NCBI GenBank assembly: GCA_964645795.1
Contig: CAZYCL010000002.1
Span: 272,352 to 336,351 of the forward strand
Source of the DNA: an uncultured Planctomycetales bacterium
GTDB taxonomy: Bacteria; Omnitrophota; Gorgyraeia; Gygaellales; Profunditerraquicolaceae
Length of the DNA: 64,000 nt
Direction of reading: 5' to 3'
A program made the translations under genes and the position numbers. Shown here piece after piece: positions 721-63,700 of this stretch. The first letter of the stretch is position 1; every line of letters starts with the position of its first letter. The notes beneath the pieces are model-generated. The model was not told the origin of the DNA, searched no databases, and saw nothing but the letters and a program-made list of their open reading frames with translations.

Positions 721-3700
721 TGGCGAGCTGGAGGCGGGATTCGTAATCCGTAAATCGTAATCCGTAATCGGTAATCCTGGCGCCATACCGACTACGGCCT
801 GCGGCCTATGGCCTAAAAACACCGGCGAACATATTTCCTCTGATTCTTGAAGTTTATCCTTAAACCTACAAATAGATTGAGCCAACCGGTGTCCTAAATA
901 ACCAAAGCGCGATTCTTCTCCGCCAATCACTTCTTCAATAATCAAACGGCCCGCAAGATCCGAATAAGAATCTATCCCGTAGCCGCTCCTAAAATCTCCT
1001 TCCTGCCTTTGTAATTTAAAAGATAGCAGATAATCTCCGATATACTCATCAACGTAAAGACCGCCCACTTTAAGCCTCTCGAAGAACGCACGCTGCATAG
1101 GCCTGTTGGCGGTGAAGGCCTTGAAATAAATCAAATCTAATTCATCCGGGAGAAGACTTAAATAAAGAGTGGAACAGGCATCGGCCTGGATGTAGGTAAT
1201 TTTATGTTCTTGCCCGGATTCTCTACCGGAAAACTTAACCTCGTAAGACTGAAAAGGACGTAGTCTCAATGGCTTGACGGAAGAAACGAACATGCCCAAA
1301 CGCTCCAAATCAGCCATAAGAAACGGCTCCACCCCGATCTGATAACCTTCTTGCTCGTAATACAAAACACCCGCGCACTCCTGGCTGCTTCCCATCATGG
1401 GCAAAAATATTCTGTTCTGGAGTTCATCCTTGATAAAACTGCATTTGGCCTGCTCCAAATAATCCCGTTTCATGCGACTGAAGGCATCCTCTCCGACGAA
1501 GAAACCGGAATCACCGTCTTTATCGTAGATAAGATCCTCTTGGCGATAGGCAACTCTGAACGGACGTATATTTATATAGTAAACGGTCTGAAGGTTCGGG
1601 AAGATCTCAAAGATGCGCAAATCCAGTCCGCCCGGGTAAGCAGCGATGCGCGGCTGGCTAAGGATATCAGCCGGCGAGCTGGCCAGCCGAGATTTCAAGG
1701 CTGCCCGTAGCTGTCCCAGTTTTTTCTCAGAAACATCCAAGTAAGGATCATTTAAGATTACCTGTGCTTTCTTAACTGCGCAAAGATCACGTTTCTTTAT
1801 CCCTTTAATGATATCCAGAAAGTAGTCTTCGAAATATTCTTCGATGAGAAGGTGCTCAAAATTAGCAATAATAACCGGGCGGTCCTCATTAAATTCCGCT
1901 ATCCGAAAACTCATTGATCTCTGAGGAATAGCATGCAGAAAATCAATATCGGCATAAACATCTTTTTCAATATCAACCAGAAACCTATCCTTGATTTTCC
2001 GGCCATGCGATAAAGCAAAATGCAAGTGAACCAGCCTGCCGGCGTCATTTTCAGCATCCCTATATAAGGTAGCAATTATCTGTCCTCTTCTGACATTTTG
2101 ACCCCCATCTACAAGTGGAACAACATGCGCATAGGTTGAAAATAATCCGCTTAATCTTTTTCCGTGCTCAATTGATATAAAATAGTTAAACGGCCCATTA
2201 TACTTATAAACTTGAGCGATCACTCCATCTGCTATGGCCCTTACCTTTGTTTCTGCTGGGAGACCCAGCATGATGCTTCCTTCCTTATTAAAATAGGCCG
2301 CCCAGTCGAAAGACGAATCTCGCTCGCCAAATAGGAAATGGCCTGCTGGACCATTCCAACTTACCCATTGCTTGAATCCCGGTATGGATGTTTCATCTAC
2401 GGGAGTCAATACATCCAGATTAGAAGACCATTCCATAGTATCGTAAGATATTGGAACTTTAGCGCTAAATTTGCCTACTCTGTATTCCACCGGTGAGCTA
2501 ACAAGCTCTAATCTTAACGCAGGGCTTCTTTGGGTTTCAATCATGACATTAAGCTCTTTTGATACCAGAAAATTGCCCTTCGCGCTCCTTATCAATTCTA
2601 ATCCTTCGAATAGCTGCTTTAACTGGGACGATTGAACATCAGCGGCGCCATAGTGGTAAGTATAATGCTGTATGTACTCTTGAAAATGAGGCTTGATTGA
2701 AACCGTATCGACAGCAGTAACAGAGGATCCTTTCTCTATATGAACTCGACCGGCAAGATTAACCAAGTACCAAAGAAACATGATCTTTGGATATTGAAGG
2801 CAGAGCCGGTCATCGTCCAGTTTGCGGCTTTCATCGATAATATTGCCATCAGGATATATCTCAAGCATTTTATTTACGTAGTTGACGCATTCCTTATCGC
2901 CCCAAATAGATCCTTGCGCCATAGGCGAACTGGACTTGCAGACATCAAAATAAACGCTTAGAATCCGGTAAGCGCGGTAGAGCTCTTTGGCTTTCCTTTT
3001 CTCCCGTCCATATTCCGCTATTTTATTGATGCAGATCTCTTCCAGCTTTCCTGTTTTGCCGCGATAGAATGAATCTATATCGATGTCCAGAACGCTGATG
3101 CTTTCAGCGATTATTCGGGGTATCTCCCTGGGCAGATTCATCTCATGATCCTTTAGATAGCTATTGAATATGGAATAATACGCGGCCTTGAGTTTTCGTA
3201 TATCCTTTGCATCTTTACTCTTCGCTATTTTTTCCAGGCACATCTCCTGTATAGTCTTCCTGCTGCATATTTCCTGAAGCATTATATCGAGACCGAATTG
3301 CTTAAGATTATTCTGAAGATCTTCCTTATGCTTGAGTTCGGGGTGATCCGAATATATCTGCCGCAATTCATTCTTTTTTGCATTAATCATATTTATTATT
3401 GCCAAGGCGCCCAACAGGATTATGGATGAAAACCACATGAGCGGAACAGCAAAAGCAAGATAACGTAAAACCGGATAAGCAGCAAAGAAAGTCGTATCGG
3501 CAAAAAGCGATATCAAAAATAAAGGCCCCATAACCGGCATAAGTAAGAATTGATAGGCTTCGCTCTCGACAATTGCCGCTGGTTTTGAAGCAAGTATTTT
3601 TACCAACAGTTCTTTTTCTCTCTTATGCGATGCCAAGCTCGATTTTTTGGGATTCAGGCCTTTTGTCGCCGGAGAACTTGCGTTATCTTGCGACAGTAGG

Positions 3701-6700
3701 CTAGCGCGTTTTTTTAGCACTTTGTCTAGATACTCTCGCCCATTTTCGCTTAGAACAAACTGTTTTCCATTGTGGGCCTTGATAAAATCTGCGTTTTCTG
3801 CCCTATCAAACGATTCTTGCCAATGCCGTCTGGAATAATCAACTAGCTCTATCGATGCGCTGTGAAGCGGACGATCGGGCATAGTTCTTGCAACCTCGAA
3901 TAAAGCTTTCCTCAAAATCGACTCTACATTCTGAGGCCCATGAAGCCTAATCTGATTAAGCAGATAATTAATTTGAAATTTTTTCTCCGCATCATTCTTT
4001 AGCGAATATTTTTTGTATAATGGCGGCTCTATCCCGATAATAAAATCCCGCAAGCAGTTCAGCAATTGCCAATCGTCTTCGCAAACTAAATACGGGATCA
4101 TCCCCCAAAATCCTTCAAATACCGGGTTCCCCAAACAAACCGCTATCTTGTCTTCCTTCATGAAACTCTCTACTATCTGGCTTCGCTCCGATATACTGCT
4201 GGTCAACTTTATAGAAGACACCGGGAAATTCCACAAAACTTGCCTTTGCCAGCGCAGCCACTCCTGATTATCAAAAACCATTTTCTTAAATGCGTGGCGC
4301 ACTTCTTCATCTCTATTGCGCTTTAGTTTAAAAGCAGCTCCCTCTAAAGGCTTAAATACATGTATGAAATCAAAATCCGGCAAATCTCGGCGCAAATAAG
4401 TGAGCTCATCGATTTCTTTGCGCATAAACCGCATTAAAGACAAAAATCTGCGTGCAAGAGGGTCGTACATATTGCAGTAAAGCTGCCCTGCGGGAATTAC
4501 GGCGCTAATGAAAGAAACGGCGGCAAGTGAAAGGCCGATTTGGTTTGAAATATTTAATACATTGGACCTCTGTGAATCATCCCAACCAAGTGCTTCATAA
4601 AACGCATTCACCTTCTCAAGCACTTCGAATCCTGAACGACTAAGATTATCCTTACCTAAAATATTGAATATTTGCCGCAACTCATGCTCATCAATGCTTC
4701 TTCCGTCTAGCAGTAATCGCTCTAATCGATTAGCGTCTTTTTTAACTCTCCGTCTCAATGAATTTGCAGCTTTGTACCTCATCCCGGATAAGGGAGAAGA
4801 CCCTAAGAGTACTTTGCGACTTTGATCTTTAAAACTCGCTGGTTTCCTAAAAAATAGGTGTTTTATATCTTCGGTCTGCATGCTCAATTCCCTGATAATC
4901 TTCTTATACTTGGCCCCGTCTATTTGGTCATAAATATTCCTCATCAAAGAAATAATTTTGTTTTTGTCTTTGGAGGCGATTTCCCGCGGATAAGCGATAA
5001 AGAGTCCGGCGATAGTAGGAATGCCCGCTCGATAATTAGGAAGGAATGAAATGCTTTCGTGCCTGCGAGGAAATATATAGAGCCTGTCGGATGAGGAATA
5101 AAGATTGAAGGGTATCATTTTATTTTGCAGAGCTCTGATTAAAGCAAAGGCATGATTGATTCGTTGATTGGGATCGCTGCTTTCAACCACAAAAACTATT
5201 CCCGGGTAGCCTTCTAATTCGCCTACTCTAGTGCACCTATCCACAAAATAAGTTTTCAGCGTTAAGTTTTCAATGGGGAAGCTGCCCTTAAAGAGCTGAA
5301 AATGAAGACTTTCGGGCTTACTGGCCCCGGCACCTTTTTGGTTAAAATACCATTTACTTTGAGTGACTTCGCTTATCAGCGTCGCCAGCATCAAATCTTG
5401 GGCTGTAACCGGCCTATTCTCTTGAGTAAGTTTTAATATGAAATGGAAACTGAGATATGGACATTTATTCTTTAGTATCTGATAGGGCATATTATGGCAT
5501 TTATTAAGATCGTAGATCGGCTCTTCTTCAGGGATAGATTCGGATTGGATTAACCCCGTATTAACTGAATTTTTCTCCATAACTTTTTTTACAAGTAAAG
5601 GTTGCAATTGCACTTCGGCTGCGAAATTTTTGTTTACCTTGACGGTTTTCTTGATAACGCTTTTGCTGTCCCATGATATCAGCCCATTATTTTTAGCTTC
5701 CCTTAAGGCATTTAAGATTACCTGCTTTAGATTTGCTGATTCCAATTTTTTTCTTAGATCGGCCGTTCTCGAAGCTAAAACCGACATATCCGTTCCTTCC
5801 ACCGGCGAACTGGCGATTTTTCTCCTCCGGTACCCTGGCTTACCATAGAAAGCCCACAAGGCATCACGAGGATGCGCATATATATGATTATTGCCTATCT
5901 TGGATTCAATGCGCCCGTCGGTTCTTAAAACGCCGACATGACATAATGTTCCATTATCATTGTAGTAAACGACCAGATCTCCGGGCTTACTTTGAATCTC
6001 GGAGACCACTTCAAAATTACTGTCGATGATATCTGAGATCTCTTTATGGTTGCCTACAAGCTCGGGATAGTAGAATGCCCTCGCGTAGCTCAGGCACTGG
6101 CCGGCAAAAAACTCTTTGCGCATGACAATGGAAAAGCCCGGCCTAGAACCAAGGGCATCTGCATGCTCAATGTTCTTTTGCGAATTAACCGTTGCTGTTT
6201 TCTCATCCGCCGGAGAACTGGAAAGCCCTTTCACAAAACCGATGTCTTGCGCTAAGTGATTGCGGGTGCCAAGCAATATTACCGAATGTTCCGGATATCC
6301 AAGAAACTCCGTTAACACCTCTGCCTTTGGCTTGTTTTCGCTCTTTCTGATCACTGAATTAAGCACTACGGCTATGCCTTTTTGATTTAATGCCGCAGCT
6401 AAATCGCGTTGTTTCTGGAATAGCCATCCGGGCATCTGCACCGCATCAAGGCCGTCAAGTAACCCCTGATTAACCGCGGCTTTCAGCACGTCTTCCCGAG
6501 AGATGGAAGCCCCGATATATTTGACTCCGTATAAGTTACCTTCTTTGATGCGGGCCATAGTATTTATAACCCGGACATCGCGCAATACTTCTTCGGTCGC
6601 CCCATGGATATAAAGCAACTCAAAATTACCGAGGCGCTGAAAGCTTCTTTCTGCCGACCGCATGAGGTTTTGGCAGGTATGGTCTATTTGCGATTTGCCC

Positions 6701-9700
6701 TTATCTACAATGAACTCCTCCCCCCATTTTGTGGCAATGAAAGCCCTTTGTCTTAAATGCGGATATTTGAAAAAGAATTCTCCGATCCGCTTTTCGCTAA
6801 AACCGTAAGCCGCGGCTGTATCCAGCATTATGACCCCGTCTTTGTTAGCCATCCGGCCAAAGACGATGTTCAAATAATCTTCTATCTCTTCGGGTTCAGG
6901 ATAAAAGTAATCCTTATTATCCGCAGGCCACCTGCGGCCGAACCAAATTGTCCCGGCGCCTAAAACGAAAAATTCCAATCCTGTTTTTCCAAAATTCCGG
7001 TAAAGCGATGCCGCCGGAGAGCTGGCAGAGTCATCGGCTGTCGGTAAAGAACCGTTGTTGTATGAATTAATTTTCGCCAGGTCAATACCAATGGGAATAT
7101 TTTTTGGCAAAACGGGGACTTGACTTCTTTTGTCGTTATTAACGATCAAATCCCAGCGGATGTTTGCCTCTCTCATCTGTTGATGTATGGCAATCCACCT
7201 GGAAGCATATTCTGCATGGATCTTTCTAAGAACTTCGGGACTGATGCCTTCTCCATACGGGATTCCATGCTCCGCGAGAAATCTGTCATGAAATGCCGAT
7301 TCTGCGCTATAATCAGAACGTTCAACAAGAACATGAATATCCAATGTAATATCGTGTTCGACGAGCCAGCCCAGCGTGTGGACCCCTTCCACAACGATCA
7401 CCCTAGCGTTCTCTTTAGGCACGTAAGGGGCCAGGGCATTCGGGTCTTCTTCAAGATAGGAATTGATCTTATCCTCGGAAAGACCCAGGACATCGCTCCT
7501 GACAAGCAATTTCGAGAATGTAGTTTTGCCTACCGCCGGATAACCACAAATGCCCACCGCGACCGGGATCTTGCCTTCTTTAAGCTTTTCTTCAATCATT
7601 GTTTTTAATATTCTCAAGCCTTCCACTAATGAAAACGCCTTGAGGGGCCTGTTTTCCGGCGTCACCGGCGAGCTGGACATTATTTTATCGGCGACAACCG
7701 TCCAAAGCGGGTTACCCGAGTGCCTGCCCAATACATCGATCTTGCAGATTTTAAACCCATGCCTTTGGAAATATTTCCCGATCTCTGTTTCTGTATAAAA
7801 TAATTTGCTACGGTCATAATCAAGCTTGATATGCAAATTCAGTGAATCGATAATGTACTGCCTTATTCCTAAAGTTGCGGCCCTGCTGAATTTATTAAAC
7901 AGGTACATTGCCTCCGGGGAATCAACCGGCAGCGAATCAATATTGATTTTTTTCGAGCTTAGGTGGCATCGGAAAAAAGGCAGCAACTTACGATAAGTAT
8001 CTATGCTTATAAGCCAGTTATTCTGCGGGTGTATCATGATATTCACCACCCTGCCAAATGGCCGAAGAATACGGTTCAACTCTTTCCCGGATTTTTCCAA
8101 ATCCGTATAGCACCAGCTGTTTACCGAAAAAGACCCGTTAAAGTAGTCTGAGGGGTAGGGCGTATTCTCTATTAAGGACTTTACATGGATTATCTCTAAC
8201 CCGGCCCCCGCCGGAAGGCTGTCATTGGCTTCCAGGGTATGCATCTCTACCTCAAAGGGAAGGCTATTCTTTAGGCGATAGGCGTAATCGGAATCGCCGC
8301 AGCCTAACTCTACTAACCTAATCTTATATTTACCTTCCATGCTTGGGCTTTCCTGCATGCTGCTGGCGATAAAATGTATTATTTTATTTACCCCGGAATC
8401 GGCATAGCTTTCCCCGGAAGGCTGCTTTTTTTGCTGCTTCCCCCATGCGGACACCTTATCCATTTGCGCATCCACCGGCGAGCTGACCGGGCTGCTTACC
8501 CCTGCTTTTTTATCGCTGCCAAAAAGGGCCACGAATTCTCCGGAAGAAGAATAATAAGAGAGCTTTTTATCGCTTTTTCTCCATATGCCGAAAGAATCTT
8601 CGAATGATTTGATGATATCCGGGTATCTAGCCAGTTCTTTAAGCTGAGGGCCATTTCTTTTTATCGCCTTCTGGACGTCTCTGATATATCTTTGCGCATC
8701 CCCGGCATCAATTTCCAGATATTCGGCTATTTGCTGATAAGTTAAAGCATGGAAGCGTAAGATAAATGCAGCCTTCTTGATATTTCTAAGCCTCTTAACT
8801 TCAGCAAGCCTGTCCCATATCCTTTTACGTATGTAATGATGCTCAAAATCAAGCACAATAGCCCAGAGGCTCTCAATATAATCCCGAGTTTTATTCTCTA
8901 ATAAACGGTTAACCCAATAAAAGCAGTTATTGGAAGACTTTTCCGACGTCCCAAGATATTTCCCGATTTCCTTGTGTGCGATATATCTGAATTCATGAAG
9001 TATGAATATTGCCTTGCCCTTTTCCGATAGCCAGGGGATAGTATTTAACGCATCTCTTACCGCAGATAATTTAGGGTATTTATCCAATGGGGCAGAGAAT
9101 TGAGCTGAATCTCTACCCGCATATTTGATTAATCTTCTGGCACGAAATAACCTAGTTTTAATTGTCGCTACCGGCAGTCTTAACCGCGCTGCAAGCTCTT
9201 TATAAGAGAGGCCCTCAAAATACCTAAGGGTAATTACGCTCTTGTGCATACCTTTTAGATGATCTATCTGTTGACGTAAAATCAAAATTTTATCTATCTC
9301 GTCACCGGGTTCCTCACTGATCTCTTCCTGAATCTCGTCTATATCTTTGTATCTATTTATATATACCTTATTTCTATCGACCCAATTCTTTCTTAACCGG
9401 TCAATTCCCGTATAATAGGCTATCTTATAGAGCCAGGTCTGAAAATTCGCGGCCTGCGGGTTAAATCTATTTCCTTTTTCCCGCGTTAAGGCTATCTTAT
9501 TAAAGACATCCCCAGCCATTTCTTGGATTTCCTGATCAATAAATACCCCGTTAAACCGAATGTGATAATAATTTATAAGCCTGTTCCTGTAGCGGCTGAT
9601 TATTTCATCCATGCCTGCAACTCTTCCTTGATAAAACTTCTCCATGGAAATGGCGTCGATCGACGGGGAAACCGGAGAGCTGGTATTCCTTGTAGCCATA

Positions 9701-12700
9701 TCGCAGCCGACAGGAGAAACGGAAGAAGCTGCTGCTTCCCCCAGATTAACCCTGCCCGGGGCAAGAATACGCCCCAGTTGACTAGCGATATCGGTCAAAC
9801 TTTTGCTAAAAAGAGGAGATTCTTTCTCGAAAGTGGCCCAAAATCCGGAATCTGTCTGCCTTACGGATTGGATGACCCTGCGTAAAATCAGCGCCCCTTC
9901 GGGCAAAGAAGCAAAGCTTCTCAATAAAGTAAATATGAGCTGGTTGCGCCGCAGACAGCCTTCCAGCTCTAAAACATCATCCCAGCCGCTGACGGCTCCG
10001 CTATCCTTCATTTTTTCAAGTAACGATACGGCCGACAGGCAGCGATACGATAAAGGATTAAATAACTGGGCTTCCTTTACAAAGCGGCATAAGTCGCAGG
10101 ATGAATCCTGCTTCAGATGAAAATGGTCTGCCTGATGGATAATCGCGCTTATATCCTTTAGCAAAGAATAATCACCGATAAGATGCAGGCTGTTCATTAA
10201 AAGCATTGTCTCCAGCAGAGCGTCACCTTTGCCGTTAGAGTAAAACATGCGTCTGGCAAGCTGATCAGCTATAGGCTCCCTTTCTGCGTCCCATTTGTTT
10301 GCGGGTTCTTCGGATATATTCAGGCCGTCAAAACTCTTGTCTGCCCTGTCCAACAGGTCAAATGCAAACAACGTGTTTAATAGCTCCCTGCCTCTTAGGA
10401 CGCCATTGTTACCCGGACCGATATAGAACCGTAGCGCCTGAGAAGCCGCTTTTTCGGAGTCTTCTTCATTCACGACAACAGCCGGAACTCCGCCCTGATC
10501 CATATAAACCGCTACTGTTTTCGATGCCCCTTCGCCAAGATGATAAACCAGCTCTTCGATTCCTGTATTAAGAGTTATTCCGTTTTTCTCTGAAACGCGT
10601 ATGCCTTTTATCACCAGGTCCGGACCAAACTCATCCAAAAGCCAAGTCAAAGACGGCAATGATCCTTGGCAGTCAAAAACTAAGGCACCCTTCTTGTATA
10701 CGCGTATGCGCGGGTCCTGGATGACAACCGCTTCCTTGAGCGGTTCTTTGTGGTTTATGTGACGATCCCGGTTAACAGCGGCGCCAGGCTTGATTACTCT
10801 GTCATTGGCAACCCCCTTGTACTGCAGTGCCCAAGCATACTGAAGATCGGGATTTCTTGCCTTTGCGGTGCCGGTCAATCTGCGAGCCCGTACAACTCTA
10901 TTGCCCGTCTTATCATGCCTATTATTGCCTTTCTGGCCTGACTTATTATTTTTCTTGATTTCTGCCCTGATGCGGAGCTTATCTTCCCTGACGCGGAGCT
11001 TCTCTTCTTTAAGCTTTTCCCGCATCTCGTCTTTCGCCTTTCTCTTAAGCCTGGAGGCTGCCTGCGTATAATGCTTTTCAAACCTCCTTAAAACCGCTTG
11101 TTTTTGGATATAGCGAGCTATGCTTTCAACCCTGTAATTTATAAGCTGCTTGGTGGGAATAAGGTATTTTTTAATGCCCGCAGCTTTCAGTATTACGCTT
11201 ACCTCCTTTGCCTTTCTGAGCAAGTTTACCGGATCGGCGTAATGCTTGCCTTCTTGACGGTACTGCTTCGGAAAGGAATTGTAGTCGACGCCGAACTCGA
11301 TCAACCCTTCTATGGCCTGACGAACCTGCAATGCCTTCTTCTCTTCCTGGCGGAGTCTCTGCTGTTTCTTTTTCTTTAAATATTTTATTGCTGCGGCTAC
11401 GGTATGCCTCCTTAGCAAGGTAATGGTAATCTCATTCTTATCCAGATCATACCCCTCTATCCGTTTTTCAAGCTCGTCTCTTTTGCTGCATAAAGCCCAG
11501 GCGGATATATGGTCCTTGAAACAGGATGATACTTTGTCGAAATCTATGGCGTAAACATCCAAAAGCCTCTTTTTTGCGGCCTGCTGCCGGCATAAATCTT
11601 CTTCGATCCTTGCGATAGCCGCTGTGATCATTTTTACATGTGCATGCGCAGAGTACTTTAAAAGCGTATTCGTTGAAACCTTGTAATCACCAAGGCCTTC
11701 CTTCTCCAGCTCCGCCTGTAATCGCACTCTCTTCTCCAGCAGCCCTAGGGGGCTGATATAATACTTGCCGCCTATGCGCCGGTAAAATCCCGGTATAGCG
11801 TAATAATCAATACCGAATTCTTTGAGCGCCCGCACGACAGCGCTGTTATCATTGCCCACCGGTGAACTGATGAAGCAGCCGGGCCTGTGATAAACTTCCA
11901 CTCCGGCAGGCAGGTTCCCATTGATCACTCTCTCTAATTTGCGGAAGGTTAAAGAGACCTGCTGTTCCGGGGCGTTGGTAATGATGACCTGGGCATCGTC
12001 TTTCATCTCAGCCAGGAGCTTATCTTCCAATCTGTATTCCGAAAACGACCCGCTTTTCGTGTATAAAATAAAGTCTGTCTTGCGCAGGCTCACATTTTCG
12101 CCTAAGAAGTCCAGACAAAATATTTCGATCCTGCCGACCAAATTCTCCCAGCCTGCTTCTTGCCTAAGCCGCCGGATGATGGAGTGATTGTCTTCGACCA
12201 GGTCTATGTCACCCTCTAAGCCTACTGCGCGCTTTGCCCCAAAAGCTGCGACCATCGCCAACTCCAGACCTTGACCGCTACCGAGGCTAAATACAGTCTT
12301 TCCGCTGATATCAATAGCGTTAAAAACCCTAAGGAATTGTTCAAAAGCGGTGGCCTTAAAATGTCCGTAGGAGGTGATCTTCCCGGAGCCGCTGGTTAAG
12401 GTCAATTCTTCCGTGCCTAAATAATTATTGGCATAACCGCTATCGCCATAATATTTTCTCAAAGTTGACAATAAGGTCGCCCTTTGGCTGACATATGGAA
12501 AACCCACCGGCGAGCTGGAAAGCCTGGATTGCAATCTGGAAATCCCGCATGCCGCGCCGGCCACTGAACAGGTAAAACCGGCAACGGAAAGAACTATCAA
12601 CAACAGGCCTTTCCGGGCAAAATCACCTGCCCTTGCATCCATTAATGTGCCGTCGGGATTGAACCTATACAGGGCCAGCTCATTCTCCTTTATAACGTTG

Positions 12701-51700: not shown

Positions 51701-54700
51701 GTAAAGGCAGAAGCGGTAATTAAAGAAGATACATTGGGGACGGCGGCAATAAGCAATGTCCCTCCGGGAACTAAAATATCATAAATATTCTTTAACACGC
51801 TGACTGGATCAGGCAAATGTTCGATAGTAGCAACTAAAGTGATGATATCAATATTTTTCAATGGCAAGCTGTCGATATCAAGAGGAAGCACGCCACGTTT
51901 AACCTGCAGGCCATGTTTAAGTGCATTATTAACGGATTGTCTTGAAGGCTCTACACCGGCTAAATTCTCTAGCGGCCAACCATACTCTTTGTTTAGCGCT
52001 AAAAGCAAGTCGCCGTTAGCGGTACCAACATCTAACAAAACGCGCTGCTTATAATCATTTCCGTATTCTTTGACTGCCCAATTGTAAATAATCCTACCTA
52101 TCTGTATGGCTTTTTCGTAAGAAGGGGCTTTTAGATTCAATCCGCATGTTTTCTGTGTTCCATATCTTGCGAAATATTTATCTCTGGTGACCACCTGAGG
52201 ATTATTAAAAACAAGCCCGCATTTAGTGCAATGGACTATTCGCGAAGGCCCGATAATAATCCTGACTTCATTATCTGAGCTTCCGCAATTATTACATTTA
52301 ACACAACGCCATTCACTTACCAGAGAAGGCAATACCCAATCAAAATGCGTGATTCGTTGTTTTATTGTTCGGATAAACATATCTTCGGGATAATAAAACA
52401 TAACGCCGTCAATTGCCGCCACAATCTCGGGATAATGCATTATCCCCACTTTTTTATTACGCGGGAAAAGATCAACGCTCAACTCACTCAAAGCAATAGT
52501 TCGTATATTTCTATCGTTTATACGCATGCCTTCTGTTACTTTTTTTACAATCTCTTCCTGACATTTATCAAACGAGGCAACTATAGGCCACATTTTTGTT
52601 GTTGATATGGAAGACAATATTTGTTTCTTCGATGGATTGCCAGAAATAAATGAGAGATATCTATTCTTACCCAACCACTTAACTAGAGACTTGTTCCATT
52701 TACATTTAAAATAAAACTCCTGAAGCCATGAGTAGTTAATCACAACATATGCCTCTTCGCAGGAATGAGGATTAATTTTAATCTTTATTGGAATAAAAAC
52801 GATATCCTGGAAGCTATCCCGTAAATTGCTATATCTACGGTAATCCTGTGTTTTCCTATTATGATCGATAAACAGAGCTTGATGTTCTGAATATATTGGA
52901 GAACTATTCTTTACTATCTTAGAGCTAGAATTGACCAGGGAACCTGCAGGTGAAGAGATCATCAGCAGGCTATTCTCAACTATCTTCTGGCTCATGGCAA
53001 AGAAGGCTTTAATAGAGAATAATTTGGCACACACGAGGGCGCCGTATTTAGCAGTTATGAGGCTAGATCTGGACAATTTGTTTTGAAGCGGTGAGCTTAT
53101 CTTTGACTCGATCTTATTCTTAAGTTGAGCTAAATCCTGTTTATCTTTCTCCGCTTCCTGACTGAGCTTGGTTAACTCCCGTTGTTTGATGATGAATTGA
53201 CGGCCTAGTTCGGCCCTGGCATTCTGTAGCTCTGTTAAATAAGCACGTGCCGCTTCCAGCCTTTTCTTACTTGATTCTAAGGATATTCTTTGTTCTTTTA
53301 AGCCGGCTTCCAGTATTATGGTGATGCTATTTCTGGATTCTTTTTTGACCTGGACATAGCCTTCTTCTATCTCTTTTACATCCTTGGATATCTTGTTATA
53401 AATGGTCTCTTCGTCCCTGAAGGCCTTGCTTGCGGACTCAAGCTTGGGATCTTTGGTTATAAGTTGTTCATTGAGCTTTTCGACTTCGCTTGTTAGATCA
53501 GCTACCTTTGTATCCTTATCCTTTAAGGACTGCTCCAGTTCCTCTATCCTTTTAGCTATCTTTATTGCCTCAATCTTGACCCTATGCTCAGAGATTGCCT
53601 TTTCAATTATATTGGCTATTGCCTCTTTGCTCTGGGATTTGACATCGTTATAGTAGGATTCAAGTTCGGAAAGGGTTTGGATGATTTGGTCTATGGACTC
53701 ATATTTTGTCTTTACTGGAGAGGAGATACCTCTGGGTGACGATTGTTCTGATATTTCCAGACAACTTAAATCTACCTCTTTTCCTGTGCCGGTGCCAAGG
53801 CTGGATTCATGTAGCTTGACTTCCTGGCCGGATTCCAGGACAAGGTGGATGCCCACTTTAGGCTTATCTTCACGGATAGGATCTAATCCTGTGTTATGAC
53901 GCCAGATGGAAACAGCGATATATTGAATCGGGGACTTCTGTCTGGAGATTATCTTAGTAAGCTTATTTATTTGCGGCTTTGAGAAGTATTTCCTGGCATT
54001 CCCTGTAAAGCTATGTTTATCATCCCATTCATGGCCACCGCATCTCTCCTGGCGCTCTATAATGCCTATTCTTGTCTCTATGAAGTCGTGCGGCTTGAGA
54101 CGACGTATTACCGGAGAACTAAGCGCGCCCTCCAACCATACGCTTGTCTTAAACTGTCTAGCCTGCCCTGGCTTTAGCGCTATAAGGTTAGAGCCTTTGA
54201 TGCGTTTACTTGCCAGATTGAACATGTCTACCGATGATGTCTGCGGCTCGATACAGATAGTTTCCAGCTTATCGTGCGGCACGTAGAAGACGATGTTCCT
54301 GAATATACCTTCAGCTTCCATCTTAATGCGCAGCAATGTTTCGGGAGAGAATATGCCGCAGGCATAGTTCTTGGAGGAGCAGCGGCGTAGAAATACTTCG
54401 TCATATTGGTTATCAACGGTAATCTCTCCAAGCCTGCGGCTTCTCCTGAAATCGTACCTGTCGTTGACACGCAGCAATTCCCCGGAAGGGAAGTTATTGA
54501 AAGACTCCCAGCGCTTCTTGGCGGGGATCATCACAGAGGCGTTCTCCCGCGATGTGCCCTTATTGAATAGCACGTTAAACCAGTAATGCAGGCAATAGGC
54601 AATGGGCATTTCATGGTCGCTGCAGTTTGTGGCCTCCGCGTATGTGGCCCACCGAGCCTCTTCTAAGGCATGGGTGATTTTTAAGACAAACCCCTGATAG

Positions 54701-57700
54701 AGCTCGGGTATAAGAAGGTAATCTGCTGAATGGAACTCTCCTGATATGGATATACCGCGGCCGTTTTTGGTAAATACGACGTTTTTAAAAGGCAGGTGGC
54801 GGACTAATCCGTGGCGCACACTGGTCTCATCATTCTTGCTTATCAGCTTTGCATCGATCAGTTCCTGACTAAGGAGCTTGGCCAACCAAACTTTCCCTGT
54901 TGAATCTATCCATGTCAACTCACCGTTATCGTTTAGTCTGATACGGTTGGCAAAGGGGAACAATACCGGTGCGCCGCCTTTTTCATAGATCAAGTTGTAC
55001 TCCTTGACCTTATCTTTTACAAAATATCCGATAGCATTAAAACCCTGGTTAACATTGACGATCAGGCGGCTGCCCGAGCGCTCATCAACTATCTGCCAGA
55101 TGCCTTCCCTTATCTGTGAGAATGCTTCTACAGGCGAACTGATCACTGGTTCTAATATTTTTAATGCCTCTTCGGCGCTGTCAACTACCTGGAGCAGATC
55201 GCCATCGCGGGGCTTGATCAGTTGGGTTCCCGGATACCCAAGCATGGCTTTTACCATAGCGTCCTTGACCGGCTGCCAAAATCCCTTTTCAACCAAGATG
55301 ACTGGACGAGCCGCGATCTTACCGGTCTGAATAACAGGGATATTATCAAAAAGGCGGTTGAATGTCTTTATCCTGCCCGGCAAAAATACAAATGCCAGCG
55401 AATTTTCCGTAAGTAGGACATGATGGTTGGATATATGGGTGGTAACGATGCGGTTTTCCTCTTGAGCAATATCCCCCCTCTTCTTCTCTGCCAGAGTGGC
55501 CAAGAGCATGTCTTTGTTATCTCCGGCTGCGTCCTCTAAGACTCTTTTTAAATACCGGTTGGCAGTTCCTGAACGCACCGAAACTCCTTTGGATAATAAT
55601 GAGGCGGTTAGGCGCTTTACGATCGTTGCCTCTTCGATGTGTATAAAGTCCGACTGGCCTATAATCGTGACGCTGGCCGGCCATTTACTAAGCTTTAGCA
55701 GACAGAATTCAAGGTCTCTGTTCGCATCTTTTAGGGTTTCTGGAGTATCTTTTATTATCTTGCGGGGAGCACAAAGTAAATGGACCATGGCTTCATCTAT
55801 TGAATCGGTAATCAATGGCTGAGATTCTATTTGCTCCTTCCAGCCGCGCTTCTGCCAGGCTTCATAAAGCGTATCAATAATGGGGCGCCAGAAAAAGCTT
55901 CCTATTAATACCACCGGTATATGCCTGAACCAGGCCTCAAAAAACTCATCCATGGTGCCGAATCCGCCCGGGAAGACCCCTATGCCCAGACAGTTATCAT
56001 AAAGACCCATTTTTCTGAGGACGAAATGGCTGAGTTCATAGTTATCTTCGACGAAATCAGAAGTCCTTTGCTCAAAAGGAAGCTTTATCCTTATCCCCTG
56101 AGTGGCATTCATGATCGTTTTTGCATATGCTGATTTCTTCCTTGCTTCAACATATCCCCTTAGGACCTCCTCCATTGTTGAGGGCCCCGCGCCTGAGCGG
56201 ATGGGGTAACCCGCGCTAAATACGGCCGCTCCGAACTCCCGGGCTTTGGCGCAGATCGCATCATCAACCGGTATCCTGGCGCTGCCAAAAGAGGCGAACG
56301 CCGCCGGCCAACGCGCGTGGATCTCTGAAATAAGCCGTCTTTCGTTCTGAAGCTGCGCAACAAGCTCAAAAACCGGCTCTGAAAACAAAGGGGCGCTTAA
56401 GCCTGAGCTTGCCTCTTGCTTAGAATCAATTGCAACAAGACACCCGAAATAATTGGGGACTCCGGATGCCAAAAACGAATAATCGAACCTTCCGGTTTTA
56501 ACCGGCGAACAGGAGGAATCAATAAGCTTTCTGATTTCTTCCTGTTCGGCCTCCGTAAAAAATTTAATTATTTCAGGATACAAATCTAAAGCTTGTCTAA
56601 AATATTTTACCGCCACATCTTTTTCGCCTAATACAAAATAGCAATGGCCGATACTCCATAAAAGAAGATAATCTGGATTCAGGCCGATAGCTATTTTATA
56701 CTCATAAATGGCCTCCTGGTATCTGCCCTGATTGGCTAAAAGGGCGCCCATGTTGCTATGCGCGTAGACATTATTAAAATCAATGCTGAGGGCTATTTGA
56801 AATTCCACAATTGCCTCTTCGTATCTACCCAGGTTAGCCAAGGCAAGTCCGAGATTATTGTGTGCGTTAGAATTATTGTGATCAAGGCGGACAGCTTTTT
56901 GATATTCTTCAACTGCCTCTTGATAGCTGCCCTGGCTAGCTAAAGCAAATCCAAGATTATAATGCGCTTCGGCATAATCGGGCTTAAGATCAATGATTTT
57001 TTCAAATTCGGTAGCTGCCTCTGAGAATCTATTTAGATTGATTAAAAGTAGCCCGAGGCCAAAATATGCCTCTACAAGATACCCATTGATGCTGGTGGCC
57101 GCTTTATATTCGACAATTGCTTCCTCGTATCTGCCCAAATTAGCCAAGGCAAGTCCGAGATTATTGTGTGCTTCGGCATTATCAGGATTAAGACGGACTG
57201 CTTTTTCATATTCGGTAAGGGCTTCTGTAACCTTTTCAATATCAAACAAGGTATTCCCAAGGTTATTATGTATGGTAGAAGTGCAGCCGGTTGTACTAGT
57301 TTCATTTATATAGTAGAAAACTGAATTAAGGACCGCCGTCTTATCTGATTCTGCCAGGCTGTCTAACTGCGTCCCGCTCTGGCTAAAGGCATATTTCTCT
57401 TTCCTATAATCCATATTCCTATATTCTCGCTTCAGTATTAAATACTTCCCTCCTTCATTTGTGTGGAAATCTGCGAAATCTCCTATTATAAAGTTAGTAA
57501 AATCGAGTAGCAAGATTGAATTATTACCGAACGGCACAAGCGCAAAACTATGCCCTGGCGCAGTAGCATGTATAGGATTAAGCTTAAGCAAACTAAGTAA
57601 AATATAGGCCAATTGAGAAACAGCTGTGTGGGTATACAGTATTTCTTTATCAGAAACGCTATTGTAAGTATTTTTATCGACTAGGCTGGACACCAGGAGT

Positions 57701-60700
57701 TTTATGAGCGTTTTGGGCGACTTGGGATTAACATAGCCTAAGCTTCTGAATTTCTTTATTAATTCAAACAGTTTTCCTTTTAATTTCTCATCGTTCCCTG
57801 ATTCCTTTATGGCGGATAATTCTTGCCTTGCCTCGTCAAAACCTATTTCGCCAAGAAAAGCATCCAGCTCTCTTGAAAGCACAGGAAGACAATCTTGGGG
57901 ATAGCCTAAGCTTGAAAGAAACAATGAGGATTCCGCTATCGAAGGTTTATTGTCTATCGGAGAGCTCCCCTCGGCCTTATCCATATCTTGCAGGAACTCA
58001 TCACAGAGGCTGATTACCTGATTTGCGGTGTATTCGTCGGTGTATTTTTTAGCCGTTTCCCTGGTTTCCTCAACATAGGCCCTGGCTTCATCAAAGCGGC
58101 GAAATGCGGTCAAGCATGAGCATTTTGTAATCTTGGCCATGATCCATCTGGCAGTTTCAGCCGGATACATCGGCCCAAATCTATCAAAGAACTCAAGCGA
58201 CCTTTCTGCGTATTTAAGGGCCTTGCGAGGATGGCCTAAATTCGCCATGGCAACAGCAATTCCCGCTCGGCACGAAGCGACAAATCCTGGCTTATCAAAA
58301 GGTTCTTTTTCAGGCAAGGATTCGGCCATCATTATCGCTCTTTTTAATAACTGGATTGACTTTCCCGGATTACTTTCCTTCTCCAATGCATTGTGCCCGC
58401 TTTGGAACGAAACAAGGGCATCTAATACCCGCTTTTCCACGCTACCGATAGGGCTGCTGATGCTACCATTGGCGCTTTCCAGGAAGTTGTCGCCGCGTTT
58501 CTTCGCTTTCCCGGACGAAAGAGGCACTATGATGCTGACTTTGGAACGGTTATCAATATCGTCGAACCTTAAAACTATGTCTGCCCTTGCCGCGGGGTCA
58601 TTTGTCATTATATGCCTTTCAAGGCCGGGCTTATATATCCTGTAATGCAACCTGCGGATATCCTGCGGCATTCTCCCCGCTATCTTCGTATCTCTCTCCA
58701 TCTTTACTTTCAATGATTCCTGGAAGCTTATCCCCAGGTAAATTGAAAGATCGGCGGGTATATCCACAATCCCCTTATCTGATATATAGAATCCCGAATA
58801 TATGAATATGGTTCCGGGCGTGATCACAAGCTGCTTATCTTCTGCAAAAAATCCTCCCGTCGTAACATCGTAAAGATTCCCCAAAATAATGGTCCCTTCG
58901 TAAGTGTTCAATATATTCTGAAAGTCATTCCTAAGCCTGTCCCAATCGTGCCATTTTAACAGGTGGGGTAAAAATCTGCCGGTTGTCATCTTCATGAAAA
59001 TCCCTGCCTCTTTGTTCCTTTTTACTCTGGGGAAATGATACCAATCTTCATTTATTTCAATTACACTCCTTCCCTTTTCAGATAATTTCCTTTTAAGAAC
59101 ATTAACCAAGTAGGTTTTGCCGGCGCCTTGTATTCCTTCGATAGTGACCCAATACTGTCCTTTTTTCTTATCTCGCCCTTCGCCGATCTCCTTCAGCACC
59201 ATATTAACAAATTTATTATAGGTGGTTCTCTTGGAACTGGCCTTCAAATATGCGTCATTATTTATTGGGAAAATATTGTGGCTTTTCTTGAGTTCGCGGC
59301 AAATGATCTTCTTAAGCCGGATTATTTTATCGGTATTAACCGATATGTCGGAAAGCTCCTGCAGTTCTTTTAGGGTGTGCCCGTCAAAACCTAAGCCTTC
59401 TATCGTTTTCCTGCTGTCTCTTACCGGGATGCTCACCGGTATCTGCATTTTCTCAAGCGTCGCCAGGATAGTAAAAACCGATTTTCCTTCAAAAACCCTA
59501 TCCTTTATCGGAAACAGGGTATCGTTCTTATAATTGACCAGAACGGAGTTGACCACGAATCCTCTCTCGCCTTCGAAGCTGCAGCTTCCTTCAATATAAG
59601 AATCGATTATGCTCCAGCCGCGCGGGATTACCATATCCTGACCGTTAAGCTCGATAACAACATTCTTCAACCTCACATTTTCTCCGAAGATAACCCTGCC
59701 CCTGCCTTTGATGATCACCCGATCAAGGAACGAAGACGCACCGTTATGCAGGAATACCCGCGAACCCTTACTTATCTTGTTTTTATCCGTTCGCACGGTC
59801 TCTCTAAGCCTGCACAGGGCTTCCGGAAGCCTTCCTTCATCCCTGAAAGATTTCTGGGATGCACCCTTTATATACGTGACTTTATTTGTATTTTGTCCAA
59901 GGCGTCTAACCGCTATTTTTCTCATGGAAATCCAATCGTCTTCACTGACTAATCCAAGCTTTGCCTTCGGCCTGTACAGCACCCATTCCGCTTCGCTCAT
60001 AAATGTGCTTTGAAATAGAGAAAAGAACATGTCTGCCGGGAAGTTGATAAAGCGTTCGCCCGAAGTCATAGCCCTGGATTTAAATTCGGATATCAAGGAT
60101 CTGATGAAATCTTTGTTCCATGCAGTAAAATAATGCAGACAGTAGAGGCGGCTATCCGAAATTACATCCATATATTTCTTGGCCAGCGACCTGTTTGGCT
60201 TTGCCAATAAGAGCTTGGCCTCTTTATTCCCGTCTAAAGCGAGAAATACCTTTCTGCTGAGGTATTTACCGCTTACCGGCACAATAGGCGCAATCAATAT
60301 CCTTTCACCGGGCAAATCATTTAACGGACTTCCGTTTAACATGGTCATATTTTCTGTGGAGAACATAATATCGCTGGCCGCGATAATAAGATTGCCGCTG
60401 CCGTATCCGGGAAGCTGAAGCATGAATGTCCCCGTGCGCAATAAAACCTCATGCAACCTTACCCTCTGTTCCGAATACGGTATCAGGCCTTCATAAATAT
60501 AGTTCAGGGTCAAGGGCATGTTCCTTATCTTCCTGCCACCGTCTGCGATCATTATTGTGGGGCTTTTGTAAAACTCCTCCCGCAGGGCCAATATGGCTTT
60601 ATCTACGGCGTTAAACGTGCTCGGCATGTCGTTAGAGAACTTGTCTATGTCTTCTTCAACGATCAGGATAAACCGTATATTACCGTTGTAAAGCTTGGAT

Positions 60701-63700
60701 ATCTCCATTAGCTTCCTTATATATACCGTCACCGCGTAAGGACTGAAATCTTTGATATTAATGATGGCGTTAAGCTTGAACAGGCCCCTGTCCACCAAAG
60801 CCTCAAACGTATCCTGCAGCTTCTTTCTGTCGCGTATGGTTTTAACCGAGAAACTCGTCCCTCTCTTGAATTTCCTCTGCCAGTTATTATCAATATCTCT
60901 CTTATACCCGGCATCCGTCGATTCTATAAGGTAAACGTTACTGCAGACCGCACGCAGGCGGTTGAATTTCTCCGCGTCAATGGAAAACAATGTTAATTTA
61001 CCGAGGGTGGGTTTCAGGTTCATAAAGACCGCCTCGGCTCCTGTATCGATAAGCTTTTCTCCTGATTCAATATCGGTTGCCATGCCTATTCTTAATATCT
61101 CCGGCTGCATATTTTTAACGATACCGAGGAATGCCGGAGAATCATCCAAGACAGCTGCCTCCTCAGGGGCAAAACCGCTTTCCTTAACGATCTTTAGCAG
61201 GTTCTTTGCTTTGTTTATCTCTATTTCTTTCTCTCTTCTCTGCTCTTTTGTCAACGCATAAGAATTAATGAAATATGACTTGATCCTGCTTCTGATAAAC
61301 TGACGCTTAAAGAATCCGGTCTCAAGGGCTGTATTGACATAAAAAAGAGTCTCGGGATTAAGGGCCTTGACGATATGCAGGAACCCCCGGGTATGAGGAT
61401 TAATGAATTCCAGAAGATTGATTTTTTCGAAATCAGCCGCCCTTAGTTTTTCAAACTGCCTGTAATACTTATCAATAAGAACCTCGGGGTCGATGCCGGT
61501 AAACAGCCCGTCCGCATTTGCCAGGCGTATCCCATCAAGAATGGTAAAGTATGTAGCCCTGCCGGGGAAATACTTAAAATATAGCCTCTCGCCTTCATCC
61601 CTGAAATGGTCTCCGGATTCCGGATAACCAGTATTGATGCCATTCCTTATCCTCCAATATACGGTCGCCGTAGCCCGGGCATAATAGCGAGGAGTATCGG
61701 CGATAACATTATCGAAATCAAAGACGAGGAGTTTTATACCGCGGCGCGAAATATTTCCAACGGCTACGACAGCATCGTAATCACGCTCATCCATGGCTTT
61801 TCTTAGAACTATTTTTGACTTTTCCTTTTCAAGAAACTCAATCTTGTCTTCAACCAATGAAATTAGTTCGGCGTCCCTACTCGGATCAAGCCCGCACTTC
61901 ATTCTTAATACATAATTAACGCCCATGTTTTTTCGCAAGCCTGTAATTATCTTCGCCGTTCGGTCATTCGTGTTATCGTAAAGGATGGCTGCCGCTATCC
62001 CCAAAGAATAGGCATCAGGATTCCTACCGTTTTCCATGATCAACTTTGCAGGCCCTACCAGACGATCAAAGCTCTTAAGTTTTTTCTCGGGATCACGCCC
62101 GACCCTGGAGATCTCATCAAGTATATGCTGGTCTAAAAAGATCTCAATAAGCGAATTGATGCAGATGTCATAATTTTCCCATTTCCCCATAAAGCCCCTT
62201 AGCTCTTCCCCTGCCAACCGGACCACTTTATATATCTCAAAGTCGCTGACCGCCTCATTAATGTAGCGGTATCCTTTTAAATAGCCTAAATACGCGGCAA
62301 TGGCGTGCAGTCCGTTATAGACAAACAGCTTCCTCTGCTTGAGTTCTGCAAGATTATCAACCGGGATTATCTTGCGCATATATTTAAAATCAGGCTTTAA
62401 CGCTTTCCGGTCAACAAATAACGATTGTTCAACGCTCACCTGGATCATTAAAGGCTCATATTCCGCTGCGTTGGGCAATACATTGGTGGCTATACTAAAG
62501 GTCGTGGTTTCCGCTATATTGAGAAGGTCTTTGGCGAGGTTGTAAACCTGCGCAGACATATTCTTAAACACTTCGTTTCTTACCTGGTGCTCGGTGTGCA
62601 TTTTGTTCGAGACGACGATTACACTCACCGGTTCTTTAAGGCCTTGCTCCAGGCGTTTTATCATCAATCTGGCAACCAAAGCCGAAGCGTCTTTTAAAGC
62701 CGTGTCAGGCAGGGCAAAAAATATCGTATTAATACTAAATATATCATTTACTATCGATTCTTCGTCTGACCTGTCGAATATCCGGAAATTGCCTATCTCC
62801 TGCCTCTTCAGCCCTTTCTCAGGAGCATAAATATTTACTGCATATTCTTTCTGCCTCCTTAGAGCTGCGGTCAGTTCAGTATTCTTGTCCACAAACATCA
62901 TCCCGTATCCGTTGTCGTCCAGGATGGAGCCGATAAGGCCCCGGCCGACCCTGCCTGCCCCGATGACAATCGCGCTTCGGCTGATGGACTGGCTAATCCG
63001 GAAAACCTTACGGAGTATCCTGCATGCTAGCGCGCCTGGGTGCAGAGTAACCGCTTTCTTTCTGCTTAAAAAATTATTTGAGATTGGAGAGGCGGATTCC
63101 TGCTTGGCGGCGTTATCTACCCTGTCCCGTTCTGCCTCCTGCGCTTTTTCTTCGTCTTCGATCTTCTTCAATCTCCTCTCGATCGCTAATGGATAAACAT
63201 TTAACGCGTAGCGCTTCTCCATGGCTGCGGCGGTGACCTTTTCCTGGGCAGCCAGATAAGAGGCAAGCATCAGTTTCTTCCATTTATCCTGCTCCTGGTA
63301 ATAAAGCCTTGAGATAGTTCTAAATATGACTAAAAGCTCAACCGGACCCTTGAGATAAAAAGCTTCGTGGTCGGCTATTAAATTTTCGTCAGTTTCGTGA
63401 ACAAATGGCCCGAACAGAAATCCGTTGCCTTCGCCTGTTTGTTCGTTATAAGGATTAATAAGCTCTTTTGGACCGGCTCCGTTAAGGCCTATGGTCACAC
63501 CGAAGTTAAGGGCAGTTCTTTGACCGGATGTTCCGCAAGCCTCATCAAAATCCCTGGGGACCTCTGCGCAGACGTCAGAGCCGATGGCCTGCATTTTAAG
63601 CAGCTTGATATCAGAATTAGGGACATAAACAAACTTTCCTCGTAACTCTTCCGTCTGGCTCCAACGTTGGAACTCTTCTACCCAATCTTTCATATACTCC

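Follow-up and report, generated by a model that had tools for sequence, protein, structure and literature searches.

A recurring SSP[VLAI] motif between the enzyme units of a giant Omnitrophota-type open reading frame and its possible role in polyprotein processing

The DNA analysed here, 64,000 nucleotides of contig CAZYCL010000002.1 (assembly GCA_964645795.1, placed in the Omnitrophota) and called the window below, comes from the interior of a giant multi-enzyme gene of the type known from that phylum. In its single open reading frame (ORF) a short peptide, Ser-Ser-Pro followed by Val, Leu, Ala or Ile (SSP[VLAI]), is found only between protein-sized units and marks most of their boundaries. 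We favor, with a probability of roughly 55%, a model where these copies are the lineage-specific sites at which a bacterial polyprotein is processed by endoproteolysis. A preliminary description of this DNA knew of no bacterial gene with such a junction signature. It had not recognised that this kind of gene, the giant multi-enzyme ORF of Omnitrophota, is already known, but the recurring motif is indeed not described in the papers on these genes that could be searched.

The motif in the giant reading frame

The minus strand of the window (frame offset 1) is open for 21,333 codons with 0 stops, compared with 772-1,594 stops in each of the remaining five frames. The frame stays open past both window ends, and the ends of the gene fall beyond the window. 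Pfam and NCBIfam scans matched the C-terminus of an alpha-glucan phosphorylase, mannitol-1-phosphate dehydrogenase (MtlD), HAD phosphatases, uridine kinase, DUF3856, TPR arrays, LOG, aldose 1-epimerase, several SAM methyltransferases (at least five methyltransferase regions), starch synthase GT5/GT1, phosphofructokinase (PFK), a response-regulator receiver, ribulose-phosphate 3-epimerase (Rpe), RpiB, MraZ, ACT, HD, GH77, two M23 peptidases, an S8-like peptidase, an ECF sigma factor, an aldo-keto reductase (AKR) and a CHAP-like region. Pfam envelopes make up 20% of the giant protein; long parts had no Pfam or NCBIfam match and many units are orphans. The ORF joins at least 60 protein-sized units in one frame. 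Compared within the window, these units are mostly unrelated to one another, and the motif as a piece of a repeated module was rejected on that ground.

The coding frame contains 63 copies of SSP[VLAI] and 67 of SSP. In 500 amino-acid shuffles the mean was 1.39 copies of SSP[VLAI] (maximum 6) and the other five frames hold 0-6, which excludes chance or composition as the source of the motif; SSP is the most over-represented tripeptide of the ORF, at 15.5 times expectation. This bears out the enrichment at issue in the preliminary description, whose “at least 57” copies were real and in frame but an undercount. Copies extend from window positions 718-729 to 58447-58458, and the upper limit of 63096 given earlier corresponds to a SASPI variant (63082-63096). 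Successive copies are 4 to 1,088 codons apart, with a median of 254 codons (~0.76 kb) and a maximum of 3.3 kb; the minimum of 12 nt (4 codons) reported earlier stands, while the reported median of 0.9 kb and maximum of 4.6 kb do not.

The motif is placed at the edges of domains. Pfam envelopes contain none of the 67 SSP copies, compared with 13.7 expected (p = 2e-7). PFK, Response_reg, MraZ, GH77, HAD, AKR and DUF3856 start at position 1-8 of their hidden Markov models (HMMs), 8-22 aa past a copy, and RpiB (138/138), Aldose_epim (298/299), TPR, M23 and CHAP end at the last HMM positions, 2-18 aa ahead of one. The earlier proposal of an in-frame junction signal between protein-sized units is thereby upheld. 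In an AlphaFold2 model of aa 9385-9640, based on an alignment of 39 RpiB homologues, RpiB was predicted with a local distance difference test score (pLDDT) > 97 and its last helix stops 2 residues ahead of SSPV. The motif itself falls within a 13-residue coil (pLDDT 50-70), with a helical next unit downstream.

Export signals are also placed relative to the motif. Among the 26 strong hydrophobic segments, nine start no more than 30 aa past a copy, compared with 8.9% expected (p = 3e-4), and the segments past the motif include Sec-like signals with AxA-type ends as well as an SRRIFLIK segment. Some of the signal-peptide-like segments begin 2-6 aa past the motif. Where such a segment follows directly, the residue after SSP occupies the place of the initiator Met: VNRIKAAVSVLLAGAFWAFTTSAAG; VSRRIFLIKSTLASLSLL; ASLPKSFIRNFIPILLPVFMFGISASGASAQ; IVKSRVFCFFFAAAVFLA; VPGLKAALRLVILLYALLLSNPVFAQG.

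The codons of the motif carry a signature of their own. The first Ser is AGY in 50/63 copies and the second TCN in 57/63, and the AGY-TCN pair is present in 48/63 copies compared with 20/101 of the other Ser-Ser dipeptides of the same ORF (Fisher p = 1e-12), confirming the fixed serine codon signature first noted in the preliminary description. TCG is used in 30/63 copies (12% background) and CCG in 44/63 (35%); the codon before the motif is enriched for C at its third base, and GTC is nearly absent at the Val position. Of the AGYTCNCCG matches, 39 are in the coding frame, one is in a different frame on that strand and three are on the opposite strand; codon usage would predict a weaker nucleotide consensus than the C-AGC-TCG-CCG-GT observed. 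The fourth codon of the 67 SSP copies is ATG once, GTG eight times and TTG once, the rest being GTA, GTT, CTT or GCN.

Information content peaks at the first and second codon positions, is low at the third and reaches background beyond about -3 to +12 nt. No conservation was found past ~15 nt around the motif, flank identity being equal to that at control positions, and the extended similarity that a comparison of flanks might have revealed is absent. Folding energies of the motif flanks likewise equal those of control positions in the ORF. Ser, Lys, Gly, Asp and Glu abound among the flanking residues. In 15 copies the two serines are drawn from other codon-family combinations (e.g. TCA AGC CCC, TCT TCA CCT), yet SSP is encoded in every one. 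One-step variants are few, about 6-8, and include three CSPV (all TGT TCG CCG) and one SSAV; three copies of CSP[VLAI] compare with ~0.2 expected. Since the peptide is retained through synonymous change and alternative serine codon families, selection acts on the SSP peptide, with the codon signature secondary to it.

Table 1. Open reading frame and motif copies in the window. All features lie on the minus strand; residue numbers refer to the 21,333-codon translation, and motif copies were found by a motif scan of the coding frame. P0001, P0011 and their residue numbers refer to related proteins described in the text.
Feature	Window position	Residue	Codons and context
Uninterrupted ORF	1..64000		mosaic of unrelated enzyme-sized units (stop count, Pfam/NCBIfam scans)
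SASPI variant	63082..63096	302	separates glucan-phosphorylase C-terminus from MtlD
SSPI	58447..58458	1848	AGC AGC CCT ATC; after uridine-kinase unit, before DUF3856
SSPI	57955..57966	2012	AGC TCT CCG ATA
CSPV variant	56500..56511	2497	TGT TCG CCG, 1 nt from AGT TCG CCG; separates TPR array from LOG
SSPV	55129..55140	2954	
SSPV	54109..54120	3294	Aldose_epim (HMM 298/299) ends 7 aa earlier
SSPR	53731..53742	3420	fourth residue non-canonical; close pair with 3426
SSPV	53713..53724	3426	TCC TCT CCA GTA
SSPL	53086..53097	3635	
SSPA	52945..52956	3682	
SSPI	52894..52905	3699	
SSPL	51301..51312	4230	TCA AGC CCC CTA
SSPL	51160..51171	4277	
SSPL	50134..50145	4619	
SSPG	49855..49866	4712	fourth residue non-canonical
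SSPV	49399..49410	4864	
SSPV	48286..48297	5235	
SSPL	47518..47529	5491	RR-containing hydrophobic signal-like segment no more than 26 aa downstream
SSPL	47191..47202	5600	
CSPV variant	44803..44814	6396	
SSPL	43927..43938	6688	
SSPV	43357..43368	6878	PFK from HMM position 2, 22 aa on; aligns with P0001 SSPV 1448
SSPV	41179..41190	7604	
SSPV	40540..40551	7817	
SSPT	40393..40404	7866	fourth residue non-canonical
SSPL	39820..39831	8057	Response_reg from HMM position 2, 12 aa on
SSPV	38692..38703	8433	opens methyltransferase unit homologous to P0001 1183-1456
SSPL	37924..37935	8689	closes methyltransferase unit; SSPV at the equivalent place in P0001
SASPV variant	37879..37893	8703	14 aa past SSPL 8689
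SSPV	37303..37314	8896	
SSAV, decayed copy	36562..36573	9143	AGC TCT GCG; opens Rpe-unit homology block; SSPV in P0011 (aa 1215)
SSPV	35344..35355	9549	RpiB (HMM 138/138) ends 3 aa earlier; predicted coil
SSPV	33604..33615	10129	MraZ from HMM position 2, 8 aa on
SSPV	33181..33192	10270	
SSPA	31639..31650	10784	GH77 from HMM position 1, 17 aa on
SSPV	30364..30375	11209	
SSPV	29737..29748	11418	
SSPV	29551..29562	11480	
SSPI	28702..28713	11763	
SSPI	28153..28164	11946	
SSPV	27454..27465	12179	Sec-type signal-peptide-like segment from 3 aa on
SSPV	25639..25650	12784	then SRRIFLIK and hydrophobic stretch (Tat-like by eye only), then M23 peptidase
SSPL	24880..24891	13037	M23 ends 18 aa earlier
SSPI	24559..24570	13144	
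SSPA	23374..23385	13539	
SSPV	22813..22824	13726	HAD from HMM position 1, 13 aa on
SSPL	22063..22074	13976	closes HAD unit
SSPL	21466..21477	14175	
SSPL	20779..20790	14404	
SSPA	19774..19785	14739	TPR array ends 2 aa earlier
SSPA	19072..19083	14973	then signal-peptide-like segment with ASA/Q end
SSPV	18079..18090	15304	
SSPL	17581..17592	15470	
SSPV	16321..16332	15890	TCC AGC CCG GTA
SSPI	16282..16293	15903	then signal-peptide-like segment and S8-like unit
SSPV	14680..14691	16437	
SSPV	13213..13224	16926	then signal-peptide-like segment with VFA/QG end
SSPV	12505..12516	17162	
SSPV	11857..11868	17378	
SSPV	9670..9681	18107	
Tandem SSPV-SSPV	8473..8496	18502 and 18506	
SSPV	7663..7674	18776	
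SSPA	7012..7023	18993	Aldo_ket_red from HMM position 3, 21 aa on
SSPA	6208..6219	19261	
SSPV	5800..5811	19397	CHAP-like region ends 9 aa earlier
SSPL	4789..4800	19734	
SSPA	3667..3678	20108	
SSPM	2920..2931	20357	only copy with Met next
SSPV	2488..2499	20501	
SSPA	1669..1680	20774	
CSPV variant	820..831	21057	
SSPA	718..729	21091	

Several features of the ORF are worth recording beside the table. Four groups of close or tandem copies, 4-17 residues apart, lie at 8473-8496, 16282-16332, 52894-52956 and 53713-53742; they may be what is left of lost units, or short spacer peptides. AGY-TCN is present in 14/23 copies below aa 9000 compared with 34/40 above it, an imbalance that hints at parts of differing age. 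The region at 58459-63999 (aa 1-1847) has no canonical motif despite at least four enzymes (phosphorylase C-terminus, MtlD, HAD, uridine kinase), the SASPI variant between the first two being its sole motif-like site. The only close pair of paralogous units is formed by aa 3297-3422 (window 53734-54111) and aa 4715-4866 (window 49402-49857), which share 52% identity over 117 aa. As both finish in …ISEQSSP, the motif was duplicated along with the unit in that pair. The GC content falls to 0.39 at 48001-52000, a region without Pfam matches.

The S8-like unit (window 14683-16284, aa 15906-16439) stands behind a signal-peptide-like segment and has the DTG motif; 'ATCFAAPQVAG' takes the place of the subtilase GTSMAxP, putting Cys where the catalytic Ser would be. 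Judged from these residues, the unit is possibly a thiol-subtilase and a candidate processing enzyme.

Related giant genes

Relatives were found by an exhaustive HMMER search with aa 8420-9600 as the query. They matched at about 50% identity, and ordinary RpiB proteins also matched, at E = 1e-40. The long matches were pieces of other large or giant ORFs, each covering one query unit only. Word-indexed protein searches with an orphan region, the RpiB piece and the methyltransferase unit gave no matches, a contrast with HMMER that we take as a limit of the method, and a single-protein scan of genome contigs gave none either. A search with a four-sequence alignment recovered only two Omnitrophota loci among the genomes and one giant ORF among the metagenomes.

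Two relatives carry the same motif. P0001 (2,587 aa, from an unclassified JGI metagenome contig) and P0011 (locus L006, 1,361 aa, from a Candidatus Omnitrophota metagenome-assembled genome, MAG) have xSSP[VIL] at unit junctions; another match, P0002 (L005), is also from a MAG titled Candidatus Omnitrophota bacterium. BLASTP homology blocks between the window and P0001 or P0011 begin or finish at the motif, with units 26-50% identical, and the order of the units varies from genome to genome. P0001 SSPV 1448 corresponds to window SSPV 6878, both ahead of PFK; P0001 1183 corresponds to window 8433, an SSP copy closing the methyltransferase unit in both; and P0011 SSPL 89 corresponds to window SSPV 9549. 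AGY-TCN is used in 5/7 copies of P0001 and 4/5 of P0011, and the preferred third bases vary among genomes. Tandem copies are also present in P0001 (SSPVVSSPV) and in L025 (SSPQSSPL), a 20.7 kb stop-free stretch of a giant ORF on a 714-kb contig (Ga0265297_10000019, 653687-674415), which shares the Rpe unit with the window at 45% identity.

Other relatives have a different motif at the same kind of place. P0023 (L003, 4,704 aa, NCBI MAG GCA_028717025.1) has nine copies of [SP/F]LDNGG flanking LMWPc, L-PSP, PTA+AckA, RpiB and HAD units, and P0013 (L002:10001-27640), a complete gene of 5,879 aa, has 16 copies of RSELR flanking methyltransferase, Rpe, GH77, GDE_C and LOG units. Both motifs sit exactly between Pfam-defined units. 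The RpiB unit ends in '...RRIDKIDNV-SSPV' in the window and in '...RRIEKIDDNTS-LDNGG' in P0023: the junction is shared and the motif differs, window SSPV 9549 standing where P0023 has LDNGG and P0011 SSPL 89. In P0023 the next unit begins 4-5 residues past the Gly-Gly, and among its nine motifs Asn is AAC in 6/9 and the second Gly GGA in 7/9. The codon families of Leu and the final Arg of RSELR are correlated in P0013, with seven TTR-AGR, seven CTN-CGN (one with His/CAT last) and two mixed (p = 0.01).

No junction motif was found in several multi-enzyme relatives of 1-5 kaa. Taken together, junction motifs in related ORFs are common, not obligatory. A separate arrangement was seen at L026:608-20606 (also L027; P0003, P0004, P0008, P0009, P0012), where tandem multi-enzyme genes encode separate proteins of 3,332 aa, 2,122 aa and at least 1,117 aa. 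A conserved signal or anchor (…TFVALDI[AS][WY]A.P) opens the first two of these, and both close with …LAAA before the stop; several other HMMER matches end in SAA or AAA, which resembles the C-terminus of the ssrA tag.

Processing sites and other explanations

Several lines of evidence favor a model where the motif is a processing site. A short conserved peptide stands exactly at unit boundaries and within an exposed coil; a cut would leave export signals at new N-termini; and lineages differ in their motif at equivalent junctions, one of these motifs ending in Gly-Gly, after which C39 peptidases cleave. C39 and S8 peptidase domains are, moreover, published as usual in these giant proteins. 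Of the three roles considered in the preliminary description, processing best fits the unit boundaries, the signal peptides directly after the motif and the lineage-specific motifs of related ORFs.

In such a mechanism, a lineage-specific endopeptidase would recognise the motif and cut the polyprotein into separate proteins during or after translation, which would leave several of the released proteins with an exposed export signal at the N-terminus. The junction may have been copied from place to place as units were duplicated and exchanged at junctions, which would leave the AGY-TCN signature and the third-position bias. Strict selection for Ser would then block switches between AGY and TCN, codon families between which there is a known barrier. 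We attribute the signature to copying by descent because AGY-TCN is also seen in P0001 and P0011 and because the codon families of RSELR are correlated. The scissile bond may not be Pro-Val; since neither Pro at P1 nor Leu at P1' would be favourable, the cut may fall before or within SSP.

Other observations weigh against processing. No protease is tied to the motif, cleavage being putative throughout. The peptidases of the window (two M23, the CHAP-like region and the Cys-variant S8-like unit) are all apparently exported, and no C39 domain is among them. Pro at P1 is disfavoured by most endopeptidases, and an N-terminal Leu is destabilising under the bacterial N-end rule, which would concern 15 copies if the cut were SSP/L. 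A motif is missing from some junctions: those within aa 1-1847, Rpe-RpiB and, in P0023, PTA-AckA. The stretch L025 has five SSP copies only (TCN-TCN in 4/5) and no strong junction motif, showing that such motifs are not obligatory, and P0013 and P0023 were identified through homology of single enzyme units. Descent does not fully account for the preference for TCG and CCG at third positions or for the preceding C. Finally, the SRRIFLIK segment had no match to the Tat signal HMM, and its Tat assignment is by eye only.

The motif could instead be a recombination adaptor or fusion scar, that is, a cassette-capture junction tolerated as a linker with no proteolytic role. The codon-family signature and third-base bias suggest copying from a master sequence, unit order varies by genome with homology blocks breaking at the motif, the identity of the motif is lineage-specific, and tandem copies exist. 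A neutral scar would decay, however, whereas SSP has persisted despite synonymous changes and the use of alternative serine codon families, even at aligned junctions whose units are only 26-50% identical. There is also no similarity beyond ~15 nt and no inverted repeat or structure as in site-specific systems. The scar and common descent proposed in the preliminary description thus account for the codon signature only, and as a full explanation we consider this one unlikely, although it can coexist with processing as the origin of the copies. An integron-type cassette array was rejected given the continuous frame, the lack of conservation beyond ~15 nt and the lack of excess RNA or DNA structure in the flanks; attC sites are imperfect inverted repeats of ~60-140 bp at cassette boundaries.

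A protein that stays intact, with the motif as an uncleaved modification or docking site (Ser-Pro O-glycosylation or phosphorylation, a chaperone or secretion handle) or a preferred hinge, would agree with its exposed coil between folded parts, with the Ser-, Lys-, Gly-, Asp- and Glu-rich flanks and with published models of a membrane-anchored coat with many transmembrane helices. We nevertheless find it rather improbable. RSELR and LDNGG are chemically unrelated to SSP, making one common modification chemistry unlikely; ordinary hinges are not conserved to four exact residues; and signal-peptide-like segments 2-6 aa past the motif make most sense as new N-termini.

The doubts are greater for a translational event, where the nascent peptide and specific tRNAs would cause a pause, a skipped peptide bond (viral 2A-like) or release and restart at junctions. 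The AGY, TCG and CCG preferences could mirror tRNA identity, and release of units during translation would, we infer, suit a message of >64 kb. The recoding or pausing signal suggested in the preliminary description found no support, however: flanking RNA is structured no more than control positions of the ORF, conservation is confined to 4-5 codons and does not reach beyond ~15 nt, and fifteen copies use other codons. Known skipping and arrest peptides are longer and unlike SSPV, and each lineage's motif would require its own ribosomal mechanism. Skipping of the 2A/StopGo type was rejected, the 4-5 conserved residues being unlike NPGP; the 2A consensus is a C-terminal D(V/I)ExNPG/P within a peptide of ~18-30 aa.

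An RNA-level signal, with the nucleotide motif as an RNase cleavage site or internal start region and the units translated separately, is very improbable: the consensus does exceed what codon usage predicts, but information is low at third positions and highest at first and second ones, the frame is never interrupted, no Shine-Dalgarno-like element is present and ATG follows the motif in 1/67 copies.

Known systems and meaning

Giant multi-enzyme ORFs of Omnitrophota have been described as 'Archaeovorin'-type (West-Roberts et al. 2023, bioRxiv 10.1101/2023.11.21.568195) and as 'multi-enzyme metabolic' giants (bioRxiv 10.64898/2026.06.07.730766). West-Roberts et al. count 46 Omnitrophota ORFs over 20 kb, and the 2026 preprint has 916 long proteins. 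In this phylum, giant ORFs 20-147 thousand codons long are common, and C39 and S8 peptidase domains are usual in its giant proteins; both papers proposed cleavage by C39 or S8 domains and stated that the cleavage points are unknown (10.1101/2023.11.21.568195; 10.64898/2026.06.07.730766). Like these genes, the window combines a frame that stays open for at least 64 kb with glycosyl transferases, glycoside hydrolases, methyltransferases, peptidases and sugar-phosphate enzymes; hydrophobic segments are numerous, and the sequence is divergent and largely orphan, with Candidatus Omnitrophota MAGs among its closest relatives. It differs in that the published accounts describe no junction motif and in that Pfam/NCBIfam scans found no C39, SecA-DEAD or NUDIX domain in the window, the N-terminus of the gene lying outside it.

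Better-known proteins that are cut at short sites offer a comparison. MARTX toxins (~3-5 effectors, with a built-in cysteine protease domain that cuts after Leu) and viral polyproteins (~2-7 kaa) also combine several independent modules in one ORF, joined by short linker sites for a cognate protease whose specificity depends on the lineage. The window likewise has independent units bounded by a motif, a conserved short site at junctions that is also aligned in P0001 and P0011, but its units are at least 60 and of housekeeping type, and processing there is inferred from sequence. In C39 double-glycine leader processing, Gly-Gly occupies -2 and -1 of the scissile bond. The P0023 motif is alike in ending with Gly-Gly, and its next unit begins 4-5 residues on, as would be expected of a cut after GG. 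Only that motif has GG; SSP[VLAI] has none, so that the putative protease of the window must be of another kind. Multi-cassette RiPP precursors (ribosomally synthesized and post-translationally modified peptides) such as cyanobactin PatE have repeated short protease-recognition sequences around variable cassettes, exceeding these in conservation also in nucleotide sequence, but the cassettes are 6-8 residues long whereas those of the window are whole enzymes of 100-1,000 residues.

For giant ORFs the motif gives a rule for splitting them into units for annotation and structure prediction. It also supplies candidate cut points for the open question of whether such a gene makes one huge protein or many, a question made directly testable through termini at the motif. 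If cleavage is true, the gene would encode a bacterial polyprotein with far more units than MARTX toxins or viral polyproteins, and shuffling of units at the motif would point to modular gene building. A broader and quite speculative extension is that giant Omnitrophota ORFs might be true polyproteins replacing operons, with lineage-specific motifs as both release sites and crossover points for cassette shuffling, a double role that would explain the conservation of the peptide and the codon-family signature together. Dozens of ordinary cytoplasmic and exported proteins would then arise from one translation start.

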